From positions 81,964,001 to 82,028,000 of the forward strand of contig OZ360230.1 of NCBI GenBank assembly GCA_977017645.1: DNA of 64,000 nucleotides, written 5' to 3'. The notes beneath the pieces are model-generated. The model did no database searches. It saw only the letters and a list, made by a program, of their open reading frames with translations, and had not been told where the DNA came from. Positions 16,721 through 59,000 of the stretch are shown piece by piece. This DNA comes from Torpedo marmorata. Lineage: Eukaryota. Made by a program: the position numbers and the translations under genes. The first letter of the stretch is position 1, and every line of letters starts with the position of its first letter.

Positions 16721-17623
16721 ATGTAGCCCCTTCCACAGAAGAACAGAGTGCAAATTGAGAAGCACATGTAGAAAGAGATTTTTGTTTTGCGTTGACCTTT
16801 CATAAGAACTCTTCAGAAAAGGCTTGGTCTTATTTAAAATTTCCAGCATCTGTATTGTTTTAATCTTTATGGTGTGTAGTCTGGATCAATAAACACCAAT
16901 CTTTTTCTCCCTTGGATTGTTCTGGAATGAGTTAATTAAAAAAATCTTAGTACCATTCTATTGCAATATCAACATTGAGGATTTAAAATTTTATTCCAGT
17001 GTTGTCCATTCTGTTGTTTGTAAACTTAACTAGATTAAGCAAGTGAATATTTAATTATTTCGAATCCCCTCCAGAAACTCAGGCTTGTGGATATATTAAA
17101 AACTGTTTGTATGTTTCCATTTCCTGCCCAGTAACGTTATTCTTCATTTGTCTAATCGCGAAATAACTGCTTAATGCCTTCTATTTGTTTTGTCTCTGCC
17201 TCCACCCTCCTCAGCAGTTCTTCACTCCCTTTCTATCATGAAGCTTAGTAGCACGTTATTTTTATTTAGATCCAGCTCCTCCTCTCGTATTGTGTTGCTA
17301 GGATAGTCTATGGAATGTTACCGTATATTTCGGCGTATAAGTCGAGTCTTGAAACCCTCAAAAATCTCTCAAAAAACGGGGGTCGATTTATACGCCAGAT
17401 ATACTTTTGAGACCTTAAAATCAGCTCAAAAACTACTCCACGCCGATTCGGCGTATAAGTCGACCCTTGAAAACCCGATTTGGCGTATAAGTCGACCCAT
17501 GAAAAACCGATTCGGCGTATAGGTCGACGCTGGAAGCACCTCCCCACCGCCGGCGCCGCCGCTCCCCGACACCTCCCCACCGCCGGGTGCCGCCATAAAC
17601 CACCCAGACATTCTACAATTGTA

Positions 17624-18169
17624 GAGCCCGAGGTCCCCGCTCCTACCCGGGAGCCCGAGGTCCCCGCTCCTACCCGGGAGCCTGAGGTCGCCGCTCCTGC
17701 CCGGGAGCACGAGGTCACCGCTCCTGCCCGGGAGAACGAGGTCGCCGCTCCTGCTCAGGAGAAAGACGTCGCCGCTCCTGCCCGGGAGCCTGAGGTCGCC
17801 GCTCCTGCCCGGGAGCCTGAGGTCGCCGCTCCTGCCCGGGAGCCTGAGGTCGCCGCTCCTGCCCGGGAGCCTGAGGTCACCGCTCCTGCCCGGGAGAACG
17901 AGGTCGCCGCTCCAGCCCGGGAGAACGAGGTCGCCGCTCCTGCTCAGGCGAAAGACGTCGCCGCTCCTGCTCGGGAGAACGAGCTCCCCGCACCTGCTCA
18001 GGCGAAAGACGTCGCCGCTCCTGCTCGGGAGAACGAGGTCCCCGCACCTACTCAGGAGAAAGACATCGCCGCTCCTGCTCAGGAGAACGAGGTCCCCGCA
18101 CCTGCTCAGGAGAAAGACGTCACCGCTCCTGCTCGGGAGAACGAGGTCCCAGCACCTGCTCGGGAGCCG
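17624..18169. repeat. GC-rich 27-bp minisatellite, ~20 units
   Basis: Unit gagcctgaggtcgccgctcctgcccgg and variants; reads EPEVAAPAR-type x20 on the + strand. Confidence 0.95.
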
Positions 18170-18323
18170 ACACGTAGCCGTGGTTCCTGCACCAAGCACA
18201 CTTGGGCAGCGAGGCGACTTCTTCAATGAGGACAGCACCGCACCCGATGTGGAGAATGGAGTTGCCGTCGCCGACTCTGGCTGCAGCCGAAGCTGAAGAC
18301 TTGGACCCAGCTCTGTTTGGCAT
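18168..18323 (-). pseudogene. DMRT1: Captured DMRT1-like exon-1 fragment (start codon to the first half of the DM domain)
   Basis: Minus strand AAGATGCCAAAC (MPN), then AAG AAG TCG CCT CG- CTG CCC AAG TGT GCT TGG TGC AGG AAC CAC GGC TAC GTG TCG = KKSPR/LPKCAWCRNHGYVS, vs DMRT1 KKSPRLPKCARCRNHGY(A/V)S. Confidence 0.8.
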
Positions 18324-18822
18324 CTTCCCGGCCAGAAGCAAAGGTTTTTTTACTTACTTGCTTAATTTACAGCTTTGTTACTTGCCGATTGGGGTGTTGT
18401 AACAAATTTTGGGTTGTTACTGGGAGGCCCGGACAGCCTGAAAATTGGGGGTCGACTTATACGCCGGATATACAATAAAACCATTAAAATTAGGCTGAAA
18501 AAGGGGGGTCGACTTATCTGCCGGTCGACTTATACGCCGAAATATACGGTAGTTATAATAGATCTAACACTTTCCCCAAATAACCAATGTTTTTGAGGCT
18601 CCTCAACACTGAACAGTCATTTTATTCTCTCTCCCTGTGTTATCTTTCCACTTGTTCCAAGGCTTCTGATCCCTCCCATGAGTTATTTTGAGAGTTAAAG
18701 TGCTTGTTATGAAAAGTTGAACTACTTATGGCATTAACATTGACTTTTCCGGTTTCCTTTAAACCCCCACCCCCCTGTCGCCTTTCTCTCTCTCTCTCTG
18801 TCTCTGTCTCTCTCTGTCTCTC

Positions 18823-19748
18823 GCCTCTTTCACATTGGCTAACCAGTAAATTGGCTGTTCAGTGTCCCGGTTAAAGAAGCCGTTTTTGCCGTTCACAATG
18901 GGTCAATGTTAACCGGGACACTGCGTCCTTTCACGCTCATCACAAGGCATCCCCGGGGATAGGGGAGTTTATCCTCCACCGGTGACGTCTGAGTGACACA
19001 TCGAGCGATGGTGGACCTGCCCTAAATCCTGATCATGTATAGCACAGTATGAGCCCTTCAGCACCTGTTGTTGTGCCGACCTATATAAACCTTTATAAAT
19101 TTATAAAGGACTGTGGGAAAGTTGTAGCTGCAATAGCAGACAATTTATAAAGACCGTGGGAACAATAGCGCACAATTTATAAAGACCGTGGGAAAGAGTG
19201 ATGGCGGACCTGCCCTCCCAGAATTCCTTGAGACAGAGAAAGAGCTGTATGCACGGAGCACTCATGGAGGGGTTTCTCTGCCATACGGAATTCTGGGAGG
19301 GCAGGTCCGCCATCGCTTTCTCTCTCTCTCTCTCTCCCGCTGCGACTTTCCCACGGTTCTTTAGATATTTATTAATGTTTATGTAGGTTGGCAAAGTTTA
19401 TACCTTTTTAATCTTTTGTTTCCTTCACGTTCCTGCACTTACGCAAAAACGTTAAAGGTAAAGGTTCCATTATTGTCACGTAATACTACATTTAGAATGT
19501 AATATACATGAAATTCTTTAATTTTTGTCTACTGTAAGGCAGATCAGAGCGTCACTACTTTGACCCTGGATAGTAAGTGTCCCTTTCACACTGGGCTAAT
19601 CGGCACACAGGCGTCAGTTGACGCCGGGAATGAGAGTAGGGGCTAGGCCGTCCATCCCCGGCGTGCCGATTAAATTGCTTTCACACTGGACCCTTAACTG
19701 GTAAATTGGCCGTCAATTACAAGGACAAGATGCCAGTATGAAAGGGGC
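18823..19748. mobile_element. MITE with GCCCCTTTCACACTGGC-type TIRs (possibly PIF/Harbinger), inserted in a Penelope-like fragment
   Basis: gcctctttcacattggc ... gccagtatgaaaggggc; internal tttcacactgg repeats; central inverted repeat at 19197-19317. Confidence 0.6.
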
Positions 19749-22503: not shown

Positions 22504-22712
22504 CTTTCCAGTTTACCAGTTAGCACTACTTCTGTATGGGGCTCAGTGAACACCAGTCCTACCAACCAGTGGGGAACAGACATAAACAGTGTCTGGGGTG
22601 CTCCAGATAACAAGAACACAAATGTGGGCTTCTGGGATGAGGCTGTGAAAGAAGTGGGGCCAACTGCAAAAAAACAGACTTCCAAAAGTAACAAGAATAA
22701 TCCTAACCCTGG
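22504..22712 (+). CDS. GIGYF2: GIGYF2 internal coding exon
   Basis: tag|...|gtaaga; LSSLPVSTTSVWGSVNTSPTNQWG...NVGFWDEAVKEVGP matches GIGYF2 SVWGSINTGPPNQW...MGFWDDAVKEVGP. Confidence 0.93.
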
Positions 22713-23765
22713 GTAAGAGAACTGACATCTTAACCAATATCCTATTAAAATTCATCATAAACTGTAATGTGTTGATTTTAAAATGATACAATATCTACAG
22801 TCCAATGCATAATATCATCGAGCAAGGTTTTGGATAGGGAAACAGCTGTCTTTGCTGCTTTATTGAAGACGTTGCCTTTGGGACATTTTTCTCAAGTTTG
22901 CTTAATACTGGAAGTCTTTCAGCAACTGTAACAGTACTGCAGATATCCTAGTTTATCTAAATATAAAAATGTTTCTGCAGAACCCTGTTGCGGATTATGG
23001 AAAACTATGATTTCCTTTCTTGTACCATTATTATTCCTTGCTTTCTGACACTTGTGCCAAAAAATGAAGCATGGGCTTGAGATGTTGATAACAGGGTTAA
23101 AATGGATGTTGTTCACTTTGGGTTGTTCACCAACTATTATTTTGGGTTCTTTTGAGTGATATCTAAAGAATAGTATTTGTGTTGTGATTATGATCAATAT
23201 TAGTTATTGTGGAAGAATGCTGTAATAATTCAATTAGCTTGATCATCTCTAAACCCATTGATTTGAACATCATTGAAGTTGTAGATAAGTTGAGGAAAGG
23301 GGACTAACTTCCTGTGAGTCACATTGAAATTTATTTTGTATTCTTTTCAAAATGAGGAGTTAAACTTTTCTACAAGGCCATACTGTTATCTATAAGAGGT
23401 TAAAATGATTGATTTGGAAAGATATCTGAAGTTCCAAAAATGACTTGCAGTTTCTACCCTCTACCCCATCTCTTCCATGCATCCCAACTACGCCTGAAGT
23501 TCCCTGCCCTAATAAAGTTAGATTTCTCAAATCATCCCCTCTCTACTGTTGCTATTTAACTTGGGACGAGTAACTGTTCAGAAACTTCAAATCTGCTGCG
23601 TGAATGTTTTTAACCTTTCCTTCAGGCTCTTGTCTCTTTGTACCCACTCTCTCCCACTTGTGCATCCATTAATAATCAATTTGTGTCCAGTCTGAGATAT
23701 TTTGATCTCTTAATAAACAAAGTTTTACATTTGAACACAATTTAATACAAAACTTGATCTTTCAG

Positions 23766-23920
23766 AAAATCTCATGGAGTTCAGAACAAACCAAATAAAA
23801 AAGCTGAAGAAGAAGAAAAACTAATGAAGTTGTTTCATGGTGTGAACAAGGCACAAGATGGATTTACCTTATGGTGTGAGCAAATGTTGCAAGTTCTAAA
23901 CACAGCTAATAACTTGGATG
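23766..23920 (+). CDS. GIGYF2: GIGYF2 internal coding exon
   Basis: ttcag|...|gtaaga; NKKAEEEEKLMKLFHGVNKAQDGFTLWCEQMLQVLNTANNLD; phases fit neighbouring exons. Confidence 0.96.
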
Positions 23921-24234
23921 GTAAGAAGTAATTTATGCAATTTTTGCACTGATTTCAGAAAATATTGGCTTTAATATCCCCAACCAAAAAATTAAAGCCC
24001 AGCGGGTGCATTAACTTTTATTATTTAAGACTTCATATTCATAAGATTTAAACAAATTATACTGCTAAATATATTTTGAGAATATCAATGAAAAATTTGC
24101 ATTAAATGATATGGCTCTTCCTTCTAAAATAAGGATCAGTTTATATTCACAAATGACATAGATAACATTGCAGTCCCTGTAGAGAAAAAAATCAGATGTA
24201 GGTATCTTCTGAGGTATATTTTTTTTCTCTCCAG

Positions 24235-24401
24235 TTCCTACATTTGTATCCTTTTTGAAAGAAGTTGATTCTCAATATGAAGTTCATGATTACATCCGAG
24301 CTTACCTTGGTGATACCCCAGAAACAAAGGAATTTGCAAAACAATTTCTAGGAAGACGAGCCAAACAGAAAGCCAACCAACAGCAACAGTTGCAGCAGCA
24401 G
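24235..24401 (+). CDS. GIGYF2: GIGYF2 internal coding exon
   Basis: ctccag|...|gttggt; VPTFVSFLKEVDSQYEVHDYIRAYLGDTPETKEFAKQFLGRRAKQKANQQQQLQQQ. Confidence 0.96.
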
Positions 24402-47350: not shown

Positions 47351-48951
47351 TAAAAGTGTAACTGAATATTTATTATCTATCTTTTATATTTATTATTTCT
47401 TTTTGTACTGAGTAATTTAATGTATGCTATTGGAATTGTATTTTTTAACAAAAGTACCTGTTTGGTTGCATATGTGCGTCGTACTTATGTGTATGACTGT
47501 AATGTTATCATCATCATACGGATCACAAAGTAAAACAGTCTCCAGTTCAGTCATTCTCGGAGTCTGACTGTGAAGTTCTGTGTCTTTTCCTTTTACACCA
47601 GGAAAAATATTTACTCTTTCACATTTTTCTTGCATCCATAGATGTGCCTATTCATGCATCTCATGCCAAGATGTGTTCTTATTTGCTTAATAGTCACGCC
47701 AAAGTTCACAGGGCTATTGACCACATACTGTCTACTGGTGACTTTCCAGTGGCTAATTCCCAATTAATCATCAAATTTAGATAAGCATGGCCAGAGCTGC
47801 TCTTCTCATTATACCACATTATTTCCCTGTCATCTCCCAGTAATTTTCCTTCTTCACCTAAGTTCATTAGGCTGTGAGATTTGTGGTCTTACCAGCCTGT
47901 ACACCAATTAATAAGGTGCTTTCATGTTTAAGAGTCTGTTTAGTGAACATAATGAATTAGTAGTAAAAACCTGAGCTCTGTTAATGTGCACTGACAAACA
48001 ACACTTCAGGAGGGTCACTGTTCTCACTATGGCTCACGGCTTTTTAAGAAATTGGCTTATATTTATGTTTTAAATGTCTGAACTTCGCATTTTGGTGTCA
48101 AACAAACTAAATGAACATTGCAGCTTTACTTAAAGGAGGATACAAAGTAGAATTCCGTATTAGAATGCCAGGTTTTACCAATCTGGTTTTCAATTTTCTC
48201 CCATGTTCGCATGAACTAAATCTTGACATTCAACTTGAGCAGAGGAAGTGGAAAGGACTTAATTCCTCATTCTTTAATTACAAATAAATTTAATAAAAAG
48301 GGTATGGTCAGTTCAAAGCTACTTTAAACATTTTGGCCAGGTTACAACCCTATCTGTGTCATATCTATGTCAAATTTTTACAGAAAAGTTTTAAAACATT
48401 CCACTGTACTGTTACATCTGTCATTGTGTTTACCAGTTAAATGCAAACATTATCAGCACTTTGGCAATATACGCATTAAATAGTAGCTTAACCATTGAGA
48501 GGAGAAATTTCAGCAATGGTCCAACAGAAAGCCTTTCAGTTTAGTGTGGAACCACAATGATTATATCACAATTCAACAACAAAGTTGTTGGAAAATAAAT
48601 ATGGTTTGAAGACTAAAGTTTGATCCCTCATCACAACTATGTGAACGTACAAAATATTCCAATGTAGATGGATAGTTTTCACAGCCTGTAAACTAGTTCA
48701 AGAAAGACCTTTCTTTAATAAGGAATGGTGTTAAAATTGTAAATATTGTTATAACTTCCTTCCTTCCTTAATTGTACTTCCAACTGGCCCTTTCTTTGGC
48801 CAGCTTCTCTACAACAGTGGCCATTCATCCAGGTGTTCCCCCCTCGTCTGGAGGCACGCATCCCAGATGGCCGCATTCTCGTGGGAAGTCTGGGGTCGGC
48901 CCGGCAGGCGCGCATCCAGAGCGTACCGGTATTCACATAGGAGCACCCCAT

Positions 48952-51948
48952 AGAACGAAACAAAGATATTATGAATTAGGAGAAAGAGCTCATAAAGTTT
49001 TAGCATGGCAATTAAAAAAAGAACAAGTTTCTAAAACTATAAATGCTATAAAAAAAAGTACTGGTGAAATAACTTATAAACCTCAGGAAATAAATGAATC
49101 CTTTAGAGAATATTATCAAAATTTATATACCTCTCAGATTGATCATGATGATACAAAAATTAATAGATTTTTACCTAAAATTACATTACCTAGATTAAAT
49201 AATTTTAATAGAGATATATTGGATCTACCTATTACAATGAGAGAAGTAGCTGAAGCTTTATCGACATTGAAAAGTGGTAAATCCCCTGGTGATGATGGAT
49301 TTCTGATAGAGTTTTATAAAGAATTTAAAGATTTATTGATACCTATATATATGGAAGTATTGAGTCAAATTAAGGAAACCCATTTATTACCGAAAACTTT
49401 TTTGAATGCTATCATTGCAGTTATACCAAAGAAAGATAGAGATGTATTAAAAACTGAGTCGTATAGACCTATATCATTGTTGAATGTAGATTATAAAATA
49501 ATGGCAAAAATTTTGACAAACAGATTAGCTAAGTATCTACCGATTTTAATACATTCAGATCAAGCAGGATTTATTAAAAATAGATATTCGAAAGATAATA
49601 TAGGAAGATTAATAAGTTTAATCAATTTGCAAAAAAGGAAACAAGATTTGCCATTGGTGATATCATTAGACGCGGAAAAGGCATTTGATAGACTGGAATG
49701 GAATTTTTTATTTAAGGTTTTAGAGAAATTTGGATTTGGGGATACTTTTATAAATTGGATTAAAACTATATATAAAGATCCTACAGCTAGAGTAATTACA
49801 AATGGTCAGATATCATCTAAATTTCCCTTGACGCGGTCAACAAGACAAGGATGTCCTTTATCACCTGCTCTATTTGTATTGGCAATAGAACCGTTGGCTG
49901 AAATGATTAGGAAAGATATTAATATAAATGGGATTAAAGTAGGTACAGAAGAGCATAAAATTAGTTTATTTGCAGATGATGTATTAATATATATGACGAA
50001 ATCAATTGTATCACTTCAACAATTAGCTAAAATACTGATGGAGTATGGTGAGATATCTGGATATAAAATAAACTCGGATAAAAGTGAGATAATGGCTTTA
50101 TCTCAAGGAGATTATACTAAATGTAAAGAAGTTACAAGATTTAAATGGGCTAAAGAAGGAATTAAATATTTGGGAGTTAAAGTAGATACAAAATTGGAAA
50201 ATTTATATAAATTAAATTATATACCTTTATTTCAGAAAATAAAGAAAGATTTGGAGAATTGGAAAGATTTACCTATAACTTTAATGGGAAGAGTGAATTG
50301 CATTAAAATGAATATTTTTCCAAGAATTCAATATCTTTTTCAATCTATTCCTTTTGGAATTCCTCAAAATTTTAAAAAAGATTTAAAAATTATTATTAGG
50401 AAATTTTTATGGAAGGGAAAGTTAGCGAGAGTAAGTATGGATAAATTAACTTGGAATTATGAGATGGGTGGATTACAACTCCCCAATTTTCAATATTATT
50501 ATAAGGCAGCTCAATTAAAGTTTATTAATGAATTTTTTGATTTAACTAAATCTACTGCTTGGATTAATATAGAATTGAATAATATAGGGGAGAGATATAA
50601 AGAAGATATTATTTATAAGTGGAATTCTAAATTATTATTAGTTAAAAAGAAAAATTCACCGATTATTAAACATTTGCTGGAAATTTGGACACAATTAGAT
50701 AATGAGATAGGACGAAAAGGGTCATTATCTCCAAATATGCCACTGTATCAAAATCTATTTTTACCATTTTCTATTGACAATCAATTTTTAAAAATATGGT
50801 TTCAAAAAGGAATTAAGAAGATTAAAGATTGCTTTGAGGCTGGAAGATTTGTTACATTTTCTAGATTGAAAGAAAAATTTGGAATATTAGATAATACAAT
50901 TTTAGCTTATTATCAGGTTAAAGGATTTTTAGTTGAGAAATTGGGAAATCAATTAATAGCTCCAAGACAGGATGGATTAGAATTATTAATTACTAATGGA
51001 AATGTTAATAAATTTATATCACAAATGTATAAATTACTTCAGAGAAAAATGCCTAAAGTAGGATTCCATAAATCAAGATTAAAATGGGAATCAGATTTAA
51101 ATATTAATATAGATGAAAAACACTGGAAAGATTTATGTAAATTGAGTATGACTAAAATTATTAATGTTAGGTATAGATTAGTACAATATAATTTTTTTCA
51201 TCAACTATATTTAACACCTAAAAAATTAAAGAAATTCAATCCGGCATTATCAGATATGTGTTTTAGATGCAAGGATGAAATTGGTTCTTTTGTTCATTCA
51301 ACATGGTTATGTCCTAAAATTAAGGACTTTTGGTCTAAAGTTAAAAAAAATTTAGATAGAATTTTTAATATTATATTTCCAATGGATCCTATGTTATTTT
51401 TATTTGGAGATATTAAAAAATTTAGTATTAGAAATAGATTAAATATGTATCAAATTGAATTTTTACGAATTGTTTTAGCGGTTTCAAAAAAATGTATTGC
51501 TATTACTTGGAAATCAGATTTAGATTTGAATTTAGATAGATTGCATGCAGAATTACGTTCATGTATACCATTAGAAAAGATTACATACAATTTACATAAT
51601 AAATATCATTTCTTTTTGAAAACTTGGAGCCCATATATGAGAGCTATGGGTATGAATTAATTCTCTGGAAGTCGGCTCTGCTGGCGAAATCAACCTCCAA
51701 TATATAAATAGAATTAGTTTGTAGTTTGTTTTCTCCTCACTTTAATTCTTTATTATTCAACTTTTTTCTTTTTATTTTTATTTTTTTTTCTTTTGTTTTT
51801 ATATATTTTTTTTCTTTAGAATAGTGGGAGGGGGGTTGGGGAGGGGAGGGAGGGAGGGAGGAAATATATCACATGTATTTGGAATGATATATTATTTTTG
51901 ATCTATGTATTTTGTGATTTTAAAATTTAAATAAAATAAAAAACAAAA
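48952..51948 (+). mobile_element. L1-clade LINE, 5'-truncated, uninterrupted ORF2 (RT + C-terminal CCHC) to 51660
   Basis: KSPGDDG, YRPISLLNVD, SLDAEKAFD, TRQGCPLSP, LFADD; A-rich tail; 17-bp TSD acataggagcaccccat at 48935-48951 and 51949-51965. Confidence 0.96.
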
Positions 51949-53001: not shown

Positions 53002-56000
53002 ATTTTTAAAAATTTTTATTTTTTTATTTTTTCACAAAAAGGTCAGAAGTGTAAACATAGTCATACAATTTCCAATTGTATACAACATCATTATTAAATT
53101 TCCCCTCCCTCCCTCCCAACTAAAAAAGGAAAAGGACAAACCTAAAAAAACCATAACATACAAATAAAGAGAAAAGAAAACTAAACGTACTGTCAGTGCT
53201 TACATTGCTTTTCCCACCTTTTAGGAGACATCACACCATTGATTTTAATACATTACATTTTACTGTACCTTGGGGTTTAGATTATAACTGGGCCCCAATA
53301 TACTCCAGGTTTGGTTGCCACACCTTAACAAATGTGTCATATTTGTTCCTGATATTATATGTAATTTTCTCCATAGGAATACAGCTGCGCATCTCTGCTG
53401 ACCATCGAGTGATAAGAAGGGGGGAGTCGGACTTCCAAGTTATTGCTATACATTTCTTTGCCACGGACAAAGCAATGTTTTTTTAAAAATATTTTATTTA
53501 AATTTTTAAATCACAAGATACATAAAATAGAATATAAAATTATCAAAATACATGTGATACATTTTCACCCCCCCTCCCTCCCTCCCCTCCCTAACCCTCC
53601 ATCCCCACTAAACTAATAAAAATAAAAGTAAAAATAAAAGAAAGAAAGAAAAAGATAGAATAAGGGGAATGCCATCTATAAACTAATTCTATTATGGAGG
53701 TCAAAAATGCCAGTAGATCCGATATCCAGAGATCATCAAATCCTTAAACCCACAGCCTTCATATATGGGCTCCAAATTTTTAAGAAAAAATTATATTTAT
53801 TACGTAAATTATAAGTAATTTTTTCATGTGGTATACACGAACAAAGTTCTGCATGCCATCTTTCTAATCCTAAATCTAAATCCGATTTCCAAGTAATAGC
53901 GATGCATTTTTTTGAAACAGCTAAAGCAATTCGCAAAAATTCTACTTGATACATATTTAATTTCTTCTTAATACTAAATTTTTTAATATCTCCAAACAAG
54001 AATATTATAGGATCCATTGGAAATGTAATCTTAAATAATTTATCTAAAAATTTTTTAACTTTCAACCAAAAATCATAAACTTTTGGACAAAACCATGTAC
54101 AATGTACAAAAGACCCTTCTTCTTTATTACATCTAAAACATAAACCTGATAGTGTCGGATTAAATTTCTTTAATTTTTTAGGTGTTAAATATAATTGATG
54201 AAAAAAATTATATTGAACTAATCTATATCTACCATTGGTAATCTTCGTCATACTTAATTTACATAATTCTTTCCAGTGATTTTCATCTATATTTACATTC
54301 AAATCTAATTCCCATTTTAATCTTGATTTATGCAATCCTACTTTAGGCATTTTCCTCTGAAACAATTTATACATTTGAGAATTAAATTTATTAACATCTC
54401 CATTAGTAACTAATAATTCTAATTCATTTTGTCTTGGTAAAGTCAAAGCATAACCTAATTTCTCAGTCAAAAAAGCTTTAATTTGATAATAAGCCAGAAA
54501 TGTATTATCTAATACATTAAATTTATCTTTCATTCTTTGAAACGTAATAAATTTCCCAGCTTCAAAACAATCACTAATCTTCTTAACTCCTTTTTGAAAC
54601 CAAATTTTAAATAATTGATTATTAATAGTAAATGGAATAAGTTCATTTTGATATAAAGGCATCTTTGAAGAAATTAATCCTTTTGCTCCTATTTCCTTAT
54701 CCGTCTTATTCCATATTTCTAACAAATGTTTAAAAATGGGCGAATTCTTCTTTTTTATTGATATTAGTTTAGAATCCCATTTATAAATAATTTCTTCTTT
54801 GAAATCTTCTCCTATATTATTTAATTCTATCTTAATCCAAGCAGAAGATTTAGTTGAATCAAAAAATTCATTAACAAATTTTAATTGAGCTGCTTTATAA
54901 TAATTTTGAAAATTAGGAAGTTGTAAACCACCCATTTCATAATTCCAAGTTAATTTTTCCATACCTACTCTTGCTAACTTTCCTTTCCATAAAAATTTCC
55001 TAATAATTAAATTTAAATCTTTAAAAAATGTTTGAGGAATTCCATAAGGAATTGATTGAAAAAGATACTGAATTCTTGGAAACATATTCATTTTAATACA
55101 ATTTACCCTTCCCATTAAAGTTATAGGTAAATCTTTCCAATTTTCTAAATCTTTCTTTATTTTCGCAAATAATGGTAAATAATTTAGTTTATATAAATTA
55201 TCCAATTTTATATCAACCTTTACTCCCAAATATTTAATTCCCTCTTTTGCCCATTTAAATTGTGTAATTTCTTTACATCTACTATAATCGCCTTGAGATA
55301 ATGCCATTATTTCACTTTTATCAGAATTAATTTTATATCCAGATATTTCCCCATAATCTCTCAATATAATAGATAATTGTTGAAGTGATGTAATAGATTT
55401 TGTCATATATATCAGTACATCATCCGCAAACAAGCTAATTTTATGTTCTTCCGTACCAACTTTAATACCAACTATTTTAGGATCTTTTCTAACTAATTCA
55501 GCCAAAGGTTCTATCGCCAAAATAAATAATGCTGGTGACAGAGGACATCCCTGTCTAGTAGAACGAGTCAAAGGAAATTTTGAGGAAATTTGTCCATTTG
55601 TAACTACTTCAGCAGATGGTTCTTTATATATAGTTTTAATCCAATTAATAAATGTATTTCCAAAGCCAAATTTCTCCAATACCTTAAATAAAAAATTCCA
55701 TTCTAATCGATCAAAAGCCTTTTCAGCGTCTAATGTTAAAACTAATGGTAAATCTTGTTTCTTTTTATGCAAATTAATTAAACTAATCAATCTAGCTATA
55801 TTGTCTTTTGAATATCTATTTTTAATAAAACCTGCTTGATCTACATGAATCAAATCTGGCAAATAATTAGCCATTCTATTTGCTAAAATTTTTGCCATTA
55901 TTTTATAGTCTACATTTAATAATGAAATAGGCCTATAAGATTCAGATTTTAATACATCCCTATCCTTCTTTGGTATAACTGTAATTATTGCATTTTAAAA

Positions 56001-59000
56001 AGTTTTCGGTAATGAATGAGTTTCTGTAATCTGATGCAATACTTCCATATATGGAGGTATTAATAAATCCTTAAACTCTTTATAAAATTCTGATGGAAAC
56101 CCATCTTCACCCGGAGACTTACCACTCTTTAATGAAGAAAGAACTTCACTAACTTCCCTCATTGTAAAAGGTAAATCTAAAGAATCTCTACTCTGAATAT
56201 TCAGTTTAGGTAATGTAATCTTGGATAGGAATCTAGTAATTTTAGAGTCATCTTGATCAATCTGAGATTTATATAAATTCAAATAGTAATCTTTAAAAGA
56301 TTCATTTATTTCTTGAGGTTTATAAGTTATTTCTCCAGAATTTTTCTTCCTTATAGCACTTATAGATCTAGAAACTTGATCTTTTTTTAATTGCCATGCC
56401 AAAACTTTATGAGCTCTTTCCCCTAATTCATAATATCTTTGTTTAGTTTTCTCAATTAATTTTTCCATTTTATATGTTTGTAATAAATTATAATGTAGTT
56501 TCTTCCCTATTAAATGATTTCTTTTTTGAATTGATCTGTTTTTTTGTAAATCTTTTTCCAAACATTCACTCTCCTTCTCTAGTTTTTCTGCTGGACAAAG
56601 CAATGTTTACAAATTGAATTTGAAATTTAGATCATTTATAGCTTATGTCCATTAAATTTCCTAAAAGATACAACTCCGGGTCCAGCGGAAAGTTTACCTT
56701 CGTAATTCTGGTTAATGTGTTAGATATATCATGCCAAAAGGGGTGTACCTTTACGCAGGACCAAGTGGAGTATAGAAAGGTTCCAATTTCCGCACCACAT
56801 CTGAAACACATTTCTGATATTTCAGATTTTGATTTATGTAGCTTTTGTGGTGTAAGATAATTGGTGTAAGAAATTATACTGGATCAGTCTGTATCTAGTG
56901 TTAATGACTGCTGTCATACTATGCCTACACCAGTCTGACCAGCAACGTTTGTGAATTGTTGTACCCAGGTCCAACTCCCACCTCTCCCTCGATCTTTGTA
57001 TGCCTGGTTTAGGGCTTTCACTCTGTAGGACAAAGTACATTCTGGATGTGAATTTCCCAGTCGAAGTATCTGCTCCACCTCGTTGCTTATAGGTGGGGTC
57101 ATCGCAGGGCCCCACCTTTCTCACAATAAGGATCTTAATTGGAGAAAACAATAGAAGGTTTTGTTACACAAATCATATTTGACTCTAAGTTGTTCGAAGG
57201 ACATAAGTTGTTCATTTTCATAACAGTCCTCAATATACCGAATCCCTTTTTGGTGCCAATCTTTCCATATTTTATTGCCCAAATTCATGGGCACAAGTTC
57301 GTTTTGAAATAAAGGTGCTTTGGGGGATATTCCCACCTTTTTCTCCAATACAATCATTTAAGTTCTTGCCAAATTTTAATCATGTGTTTCAAAATGTGAT
57401 TATTGTTCTTTTTGATATTAACTTAGTATTCCATTTATAAACAAAATCCTTAGCTTCCATCTCCCCTATAGTGTTTAGTCCAATTTGGACCCATGGAGGG
57501 ATATCACCCTCTTTGAAAAAGGATAGAAGAAACCTCGACTGGGATGCTAAATAATAATTTTTTAAATCCTGTAACCGAAGGCCACCCAGTTTATAATCCC
57601 ACGTCAGTTTTTCCATGGAGATTCTGGAAACTTTGCCATTCCAGATAAACTGTAAAGGTTTGTGGCAAGGATATAGGTAGAGATTGAAAAAGGTATTGGA
57701 GTTTTGGCATCACCACCATTTTGATAGAATTTACCCTGGCTTCTCCATCTAAGTAAATCGTCCTCAATCTTTACAAGCATCGGGAGGTAGTTAAGTTTGT
57801 ACAAATTCTGTAAATTATTGTCAATCATTATCCCCAGATATGTTATGCCTTCTAGTTGCCATTTAAAGCCATTCCCCTGTTAATATTTTCTATGGTCAAA
57901 TTTCGTAAGTGGCATAATTTCACTTTTGTCTATATTTATTTTATATCCTGAAATCATGCCATAATCCTCCAGTGTAGTCTGTAATTTGGTCAAGGACTCA
58001 GCCGGGTCTGTGAGATATAACAATATGTCATCTGAAAACAGATTAATCTTCTGATCCACCTGATCCACCTTAAATCCCTTTATTTCTGGATCCCTCCTGA
58101 TGGCTTCTGCCAAAGGTTCGATTGCTAACACAAAAAGCCCTGGAGACAGTGGACAACCCTGCCTACTAGATCTACTCAATGAAAATGTCGATGACATTTG
58201 CCCATTTGTTATAATTTTGGCCCGAGGTTTATGGTAAAGTGTTTTTTACCCATTGGACAAATGTTTGTCCAAGTCCAAACTTTTCAAGTACCTTAAATAA
58301 AAAAGGCCATTCCAACCTGTCAAAAGCCTTTTCCACGTCTAAAGACACAGCTATGCTTGGGTCTATTTTGGATTGTGCCAAATGTATTATGCTAAGTAAT
58401 CTACCCAAGTTGTTGGCAGAGAGTCTCCTCCTCACAAACCCAACTTGATCTGAGTTTATTAATTTTGGTAAATATTGACCTAATCTGTTAGCCAATGCTT
58501 TGGCTATTATAATCAACATTTAACAATGAAATAGGTCTATATGAGGGCGGCTTTAGTGGGTCTCTATTTTTCAGGTATAACCGTAATAATAGCTGTTGAA
58601 AAGGATTCAGGGAGAGTCTGTGTCTCCGCTGCCCGCTCTACCACATCCATAATAAGAGGCATCAACAGATCTTTGAATCTTTGTAGAATTCGGGCGGGAA
58701 ACCATCCTCCCCCGGCATATTTATTAGTTTGTAATGTACTCAAGGCTTTTTCAATCTCCTCTCTGGAGAAAGGGGAATTTAATTTTGCCTGATCATTCTG
58801 ATCCAATCTGGGCAGATCAACCTTGTAGAAAAACTCATCTATCCTGGTCAAGTCTTGAGGTGACTCTGATTTTTATAATTTTGTATTGAACTGTTTAAAT
58901 GTGTCGTTTATCTCCCTCGGATTATATGTTATCTTATCTGGGCCTGATTCAATTGAGTTAATTATCCTCGGTTTCCTCTGCCTTCAATTGCCAAGCCAGG

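Follow-up and report, generated by a model that had tools for sequence, protein, structure and literature searches.

In the survey closest to the case described here, Tan et al. (2021) report 370 Pack-TIRs, transposons whose terminal inverted repeats (TIRs) and target-site duplications (TSDs) enclose host sequence, across 100 animal genomes, with multicopy status in four cases (PMC8277862); the main text of that paper, in what it sets out, mentions no shark, no skate, no cartilaginous fish and no dmrt gene. Bat Helitrons carrying sequence from 54 genes and 16 non-genic regions are described as totalling 12,382 copies (PMC4224331), and Passer transposons of the pogo group as combining a DD35D motif, BrkDBD and HTH_Tnp_Tc5 domains, TIRs shorter than 30 bp and a TA TSD (PMC7386202, PMC9976928). 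Here we analyse a 64,000-nucleotide stretch of the Torpedo marmorata genome (the window, numbered from its first base), in which a first-pass annotation had proposed a Pack-type transposon carrying a fragment of DMRT1. We put a probability of roughly 85% on the reading that this element is one of more than 8,000 non-coding Passer copies carrying the 5' end of dmrt1, likely moved by intact Passer transposases and most likely without any gene function.

The transposon occupies 17321-18549 (1,229 bp) and is flanked by TA duplications at 17319..17320 and 18550..18551. Its 25-bp TIRs are 100% complementary: the one at 17321..17345, the element's 3' end by transposase orientation, is identical to the TIRs of two transposase-encoding elements described below (L185 and L186), and the one at 18525..18549, recognised by inverted-repeat complementarity, forms the 5' end. 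Read along the minus strand, the element opens with 105 nt of Passer 5' end containing subterminal repeats (18445..18549; 101/105 identical to L185 and likewise to L186), followed by sequence from upstream of the dmrt1 ATG, either 5'UTR or proximal promoter, with small deletions (18324..18435), and by a coding fragment of dmrt1 exon 1 running from the ATG to about DM residue 16 (18164..18323), both placed by alignment to dmrt1. A 27-bp minisatellite of 19.9 copies comes next (17629..18166), its copy number differing from element to element, and then a family-wide GC-rich linker (17536..17628, minus strand) that starts where the minisatellite meets the Passer 3' side; similar sequence, seen by eye in L069 and in copies with an older TIR variant, traces its origin in part. 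The Passer 3' end (17321..17535, minus strand) closes the element, with 32-bp subterminal repeats at 17443-17535 and a terminal 130 nt that matches L185 at 119 and L186 at 120 positions. The perfect TIRs, TA duplication and subterminal repeats first reported are therefore all present, and translation reproduces the 67-aa ORF with its ATG and the peptide SSLKKSPR in the adjacent frame. The ORF begins at the minus-strand ATG at 18323, reads MPNRAGSK...LPKCAWCRNHGYVSA... and spans 18120..18323 with its stop; it is a minority frame state among copies and holds 3/8 DM zinc ligands.

The surrounding host is a GYF-domain gene on the plus strand, with its GYF match 77 kb before the window, upstream exons about 9.6-10.4 kb before it and three downstream exons at 22504..24400 (plus strand, approximate bounds, by sequence match). 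Exons of the same strand on both sides make the element intronic and its dmrt1 cargo antisense, in agreement with the original proposal; we take the gene to be GIGYF2 rather than GIGYF1, and PDB and Atlas searches gave no name for the host exon. To the right of the transposon lies a separate, nested inverted-repeat element (18860-19393; arms 19074-19128/19339-19393 and 19183-19241/19273-19331), of which a short hairpin at 18860-18923 is part. Elsewhere in the window are two long open frames of LINE type, apparently young, at 48772-51657 (plus strand, 962 codons) and 53739-56606 (minus strand, 752 codons).

The interior of the element has a parental locus in the same genome. Window positions 18164-18435, corresponding to a stretch from about 130 nt 5' of the ATG into the DM domain, agree with the genome's own dmrt1 at 241 of 259 aligned bases, with an alignment score of 355 against at most 31.5 in 200 shuffles. 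This comparison bears out that a TIR element captured dmrt1 exon 1; chance similarity is ruled out by the shuffle control together with the source locus, and origin from another DMRT gene by the eight other DM loci tested, whose matches to the cargo extend over at most 45 bp. The source gene (L043, C2:246.427 Mb) is followed on the same strand by loci that, from their sequence, are presumably dmrt3-like and dmrt2-like; the nearest named relatives of its protein are ray and shark DMRT1, the protein aligns with the human DMRT1 structure 4yj0, and the frame of its exon 1 is intact. A second cluster of three DM genes stands at C22:158.07-158.18 Mb (L031, L038, L055), and a degenerate DM locus (L057) at C2:256.448 Mb, 30 kb from dmrta2. 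In the sharks and rays treated in one study, Dmrt1 orthologues are described as absent from the X, undetected in gonadal primordia and male-biased in juvenile gonads, the juvenile bias being reported for shark (PMC12318234), so the label 'sex-determination gene', under which the fragment was first described, overstates the role of dmrt1 here.

Two parts of the cargo had been overlooked: about 110 nt of dmrt1 5'UTR (18324-18435) and the minisatellite at 17629-18166, which comes from dmrt1 intron 1. The exon 1 fragment terminates at the hexamer CGGCTC, a microhomology shared with the intron 1 minisatellite, and the match to dmrt1 restarts at the same hexamer in intron 1, at a related GC-rich minisatellite about 60 nt into the intron. 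Since intron 1 sequence lies within the cargo, capture was from genomic DNA, and mRNA as the template is ruled out. The two frameshifts suspected in the fragment are real, a 44-nt deletion at about 18248/18247 and a 1-nt deletion at about 18210/18209, the latter common to all 29 aligned copies as listed (the variable site being an extra G upstream); the proposed R>W change is indeed CGG>TGG, with CGG kept in most aligned copies. A Gly-Val pair and a Ser that occur in most other ray and shark DMRT1 proteins are kept in the elements and have been lost from the host gene, so that capture predates those changes and the N terminus of host dmrt1 survives in an earlier form in the older copies. The transposon copies share the Gly-Val pair with five other rays and sharks among those listed; the Narcine protein, like host DMRT1, is without it.

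The element is one of a very large number. A search with the cargo returned 1,888 candidates, and all 40 that were scored were 97-100% identical; both TIRs were found in 28 of the 30 best matches fetched, with TA at 57 of 58 ends. Exact words gave 8,099 matches in the genome for a 25-mer of the 5'UTR part, 1,772 for a 24-mer taken from the DM half of the window's subtype and 24,702 for TA plus TIR, the reversed control yielding 0 each time. Capture-recapture estimates, which rest on small samples from one contig, are about 15,200 dmrt1-derived copies (exact word in 16/30) and about 4,900 copies with the coding part (4/11). Copies lie at separate loci with distinct flanks, and the multicopy status that had been raised as a possibility was an understatement. 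Comparison of ends with and without cargo, proposed at the outset as a check, gives 16 dmrt1-derived and 14 transposase-type elements among the first 30 TIR ends on C1. L207 and L208, like L182 and L183, are identical to each other or equal in length and lie about 67 kb from one another on C1, which probably reflects segmental duplication or duplication in the assembly. Across four sequencing runs from other organisms, two contain the family in bulk (3,466 and 3,492 contigs, mostly less than 95% alike), some contigs bridging cargo and transposon end, and the two others hold 90 and 166 family contigs; the 166-contig run (X7, guessed to be RNA) includes subtype-specific junctions.

An autonomous pogo-type partner had been predicted, and two candidates are present, L185:173-2275 and L186:153-2507, each with perfect TIRs, TA flanks, an intact 445-aa ORF and the end matches to the window's element given above. 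Both predicted transposases contain BrkDBD, HTH_Tnp_Tc5 and DDE_1 domains, all above the Pfam cut-off, and a DD35D arrangement of D177, D284 and D320 with a spacing of 35, the residues being assigned by motif. With TIRs below 30 bp, TA TSDs, proteins within 400-500 aa and lengths within 1.6-4.0 kb, L185 and L186 carry the features stated for Passer, as far as motifs and profiles identify them. The particular subfamily is absent among the 120 protein matches listed, as the closest database protein is only 75% identical. Outside CpG sites, divergence from the column majority is 1.6% across twelve transposase copies, and the family may still be active; the dmrt1-carrying copies were likely moved in trans by its intact transposases. 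Transposase-type copies of the family number in the thousands. The 'recent mobility' originally suggested agrees with the state of the family, given the low divergence and the intact ORFs; the copy in the window is 2.1% diverged, and the capture is old.

A search with the true dmrt1 exon 1 recovered rare longer copies (40 scored of 197 candidates). In L066-L068, which have an older TIR variant, the cargo starts 186 nt upstream of the ATG, reaches DM position 38 of 47, skips the splice donor and continues into unique intron 1 sequence that runs into the minisatellite. Sequence of the older element lies beside the cargo at both junctions, the 5' one of which shows a short, imperfect match. The older TIR has 645 matches, of which 30 sampled comprised 8 dmrt1 carriers, 18 transposase remnants, 3 interrupted elements and 1 carrier of MAP4K4 exon 1, the last including 5'UTR and splice donor (L260:1501-2163). 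Extra internal deletions mark L069 and the eight older-TIR copies, most of which, as far as listed, show the 44-nt deletion. Further changes in the window's subtype are its new ends, the CGGCTC deletion and the 1-nt deletion. The commonest form has the ATG fused straight to the minisatellite (19/30); the DM half is kept in 9/30 and 2/30 are of other kinds. Read in this way, nested deletions link the rare long-cargo copies to the commonest, non-coding form. The order of the series follows from nesting rather than from a tree, and against it stands the divergence of the oldest class (3.6%, n=3), which is no greater than that of the window's class (3.9%, n=25) and does not separate the two. Within the window's subtype, divergence at CpG sites runs about 2.2 times faster than elsewhere.

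Passer is not the only gene-carrying family in this genome. A genome search with the DM profile PF00751 yielded 3,769 candidates, and the 150 that were scored gave 87 matches. About nine of these are genes or gene-like loci; most belong to a second element, which its short TIRs (15-16 bp) and 8-bp TSDs mark as apparently hAT-like. No hAT transposase was recognised among the 30 sampled ends. The element's cargo derives from dmrta2 (L034, C2:256.478 Mb, minus strand) and includes exon 1 with the whole DM domain, the splice donor and a part of intron 1 that reaches about 650 nt at most, at 63 places including the gene itself (the carriers being most of L035, L036, L039-L042, L044-L054, L056, L058-L060 and L187-L204). 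In the frames inspected a stop precedes the DM domain, with a pyrimidine run ending in CAG just upstream, so that the domain could constitute a putative ready-made DM exon. The family has at least 1,352 left ends, and dmrta2 was in 1/30 of those sampled; other members carry varied, often chimeric cargos (L205-L234, L271-L279). These include an exon of a procollagen galactosyltransferase-like (COLGALT-like) gene (source L273) in 8 copies, 8/8 with exact 8-bp TSDs; a CRAL-TRIO N exon in L222, the sole Pfam family from 118 of 260 open stretches in 16 elements; and, in L207, L208 and L228, a ZNHIT3-like first exon whose match is not significant (E 1.3). Several stretches among the hAT-like cargos resemble CpG islands. 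Three of the 30 (L221, L224 and L233) share their minisatellite and 3' junction with the dmrt1 Passer element, which suggests that cargo has passed between superfamilies.

The presence of dmrt1 in Passer and of dmrta2 in a hAT-like family amounts to two independent captures from DM-domain genes, as if transposons here targeted such genes specifically. We regard this as very improbable: the dmrta2 case came out of a DM-domain search and recurs once in the 30 hAT ends sampled free of that bias, and the COLGALT-like, CRAL-TRIO N and MAP4K4 cargos come from elsewhere; gene capture here is not DM-specific. Nor do we give much more than nominal credence to the idea that a truncated DM protein, or a sex-determining gene like dm-W, could arise from the element. 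The ATG and its context are kept, rare older copies extend to DM residue 38, and the separate hAT-like family has the complete DMRTA2 DM domain. Among the first 30 copies with the DM-half word, the ATG is in frame with CxxCxNHG in 4; the frame is lost in 26 and stops after 33 residues in 15. The window's ORF scores 15 bits against the Pfam DM cut-off of 27, aligns with profile positions 3-15 of 47, has the three of eight zinc ligands already mentioned and lacks the recognition helix; a protein search with it found DMRT1s only, which is weak evidence, as is the finding of no annotated chimeric protein among proteins of 119-2000 aa. Passer copies with a complete DM domain were seen neither in the 40 scored of 197 nor in 30 + 18 of the 87 PF00751 matches, the oldest copies ending at position 38. 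The DMRTA2 copies are neutral (nonsynonymous/synonymous ratio 1.12-1.35; 8 stops in 36 copies). For the dmrt1 codons, taken over 30 copies, the ratio is below one (0.40-0.71), which speaks against our preferred reading; the counts are tiny (5 versus 4; 16 versus 9 outside CpG) and take in shared subfamily changes repeatedly, so that slight constraint is conceivable. Dmrt1 orthologues lie off the X in the sharks and rays so described (PMC12318234), which also speaks against a sex-determining derivative. The significance attached in the first-pass annotation to the 67-aa ORF is not upheld, given these counts and the loss of all coding sequence in 19/30 copies, and its analogy with Xenopus dm-W is weak because the Passer copies found have no full DM domain.

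Two further readings concern what the cargo might do rather than encode. Germline piRNAs or siRNAs against the element could also match dmrt1 mRNA at the start codon and CpG-rich 5' end and so dampen dmrt1; we think this unlikely, and it can hold alongside selfish amplification, our preferred explanation. Exact matches of 22-48 nt to the dmrt1 5'UTR or exon 1 occur in 30/30 copies of the window's subtype, spanning 48 nt across the ATG in 10; in the 5'UTR sample they range over 15-48 nt, and most copies of the commonest form have none longer than 20 nt. Such lengths would make cross-talk possible, and thousands of copies exist, that in the window lying antisense within an intron. The male bias of shark Dmrt1 in juvenile gonads (PMC12318234) and a maize precedent for capture-linked epigenetic conflict (bioRxiv 10.1101/777037), each as described there, would fit, as would the 166 element contigs with subtype-specific junctions in run X7; that run comes from another organism, its RNA nature is only a guess, and the source gene's exon 1 frame is intact. 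The fuller proposition, that a group of rays has plant-like cut-and-paste gene capture in which about 15,000 dmrt1 5' copies, as its largest product, feed germline small RNAs matching dmrt1 mRNA across its start codon, strikes us as a shade more doubtful still; if true, the level of the main gene for testis maintenance would be set or limited by transposon silencing, in what would be the first vertebrate capture-driven epigenetic conflict on a sex gene. We are similarly sceptical that the dmrt1 5' sequence or the CpG-rich minisatellite aids germline transposition, through open chromatin or milder silencing, and in that way explains the copy number. About half of the family's ends are dmrt1-derived (16/30), a high share that counts against purely selfish amplification and may stem from an advantage; copies that have lost the coding part still keep the 5'UTR and minisatellite, and the same minisatellite and 3' junction recur in 3/30 hAT elements. 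Against this, CpG decay shows that copies were methylated, and it is common for short non-autonomous elements to be more numerous than their parents even when they carry no cargo. The comparative record cuts both ways: bat Helitrons with gene 5' ends are reported to attain higher copy numbers (PMC4224331), and capture in maize is described as giving no copy-number rise (bioRxiv 10.1101/777037).

On the preferred reading, that of a selfish element with no gene function, a history in four steps can be proposed. An older Passer subfamily would have exchanged its transposase for about 600 bp of dmrt1, perhaps by template switching during DNA repair or replication. Deletions between short repeats would then have removed the splice donor, next the 44 nt, next the second half of the DM domain and finally all coding sequence. 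The cargo would have gained the ends of a younger Passer subfamily, and amplification in trans would have carried it to the estimated 15,000 copies. The copy in the window would have entered the GIGYF intron by chance.

No published report of the dmrt1-carrying element was found in the literature searched, and it may stand unnamed in Repbase or Dfam. A single genome here holds a Pack-TIR, its intact helper transposase, a stepwise history and a second family shuffling the exons of many genes, and gene capture, hand-over of cargo between subfamilies and silencing cross-talk become directly testable in a vertebrate. In practical terms, element copies will confound work on dmrt1 and dmrta2 in such fishes, be it with probes or primers, in read mapping or in gene counts.

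Compared with the systems from which we began, the helper elements agree with Passer as described in DD35D motif, domains, TIRs below 30 bp, TA TSD, a 445-aa protein and a length of 2.1-2.4 kb, and differ in that Passer is presented as autonomous elements (PMC7386202, PMC9976928), whereas here it has gene-capturing derivatives. Dm-W of Xenopus likewise joins dmrt1-derived sequence to DNA-transposon sequence; it is, however, a functional sex-determining gene whose last exon comes from hAT-10 (PMC9250109), whereas here dmrt1 is cargo inside a transposon, the DM domain is incomplete and the copies are dispersed. Plant Pack-MULEs, as treated in work on maize, share the multicopy state and the chimeric cargos, matched here by a hAT-like family that joins pieces of several genes, and maize capture shares the potential for small-RNA cross-talk onto donor genes; other superfamilies are involved there, and the cross-talk is shown in maize, whereas here it is a possibility suggested by sequence matches (bioRxiv 10.1101/777037). 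Bat Helitrons are vertebrate DNA transposons through which promoters, 5'UTRs, first exons and introns have likewise come to number in the thousands; amplification there is by rolling-circle transposition and from many genes (PMC4224331), whereas a cut-and-paste element has here reached a similar number from one gene. Animal Pack-TIRs are the nearest relatives, with TIRs and TSDs around host sequence, microhomology at breakpoints and TcMariner and hAT as main carriers, and the multicopy case illustrated for them lies on three chromosomes (PMC8277862), compared with one capture in more than 8,000 copies in T. marmorata, where an intact helper and a deletion series are also visible. Multicopy animal Pack-TIRs are reported in that survey as very rare and low-copy (4/370; PMC8277862); with about ten thousand copies, the Torpedo element is most likely a selfish, massively amplified Pack-TIR on a scale far beyond the animal cases described.
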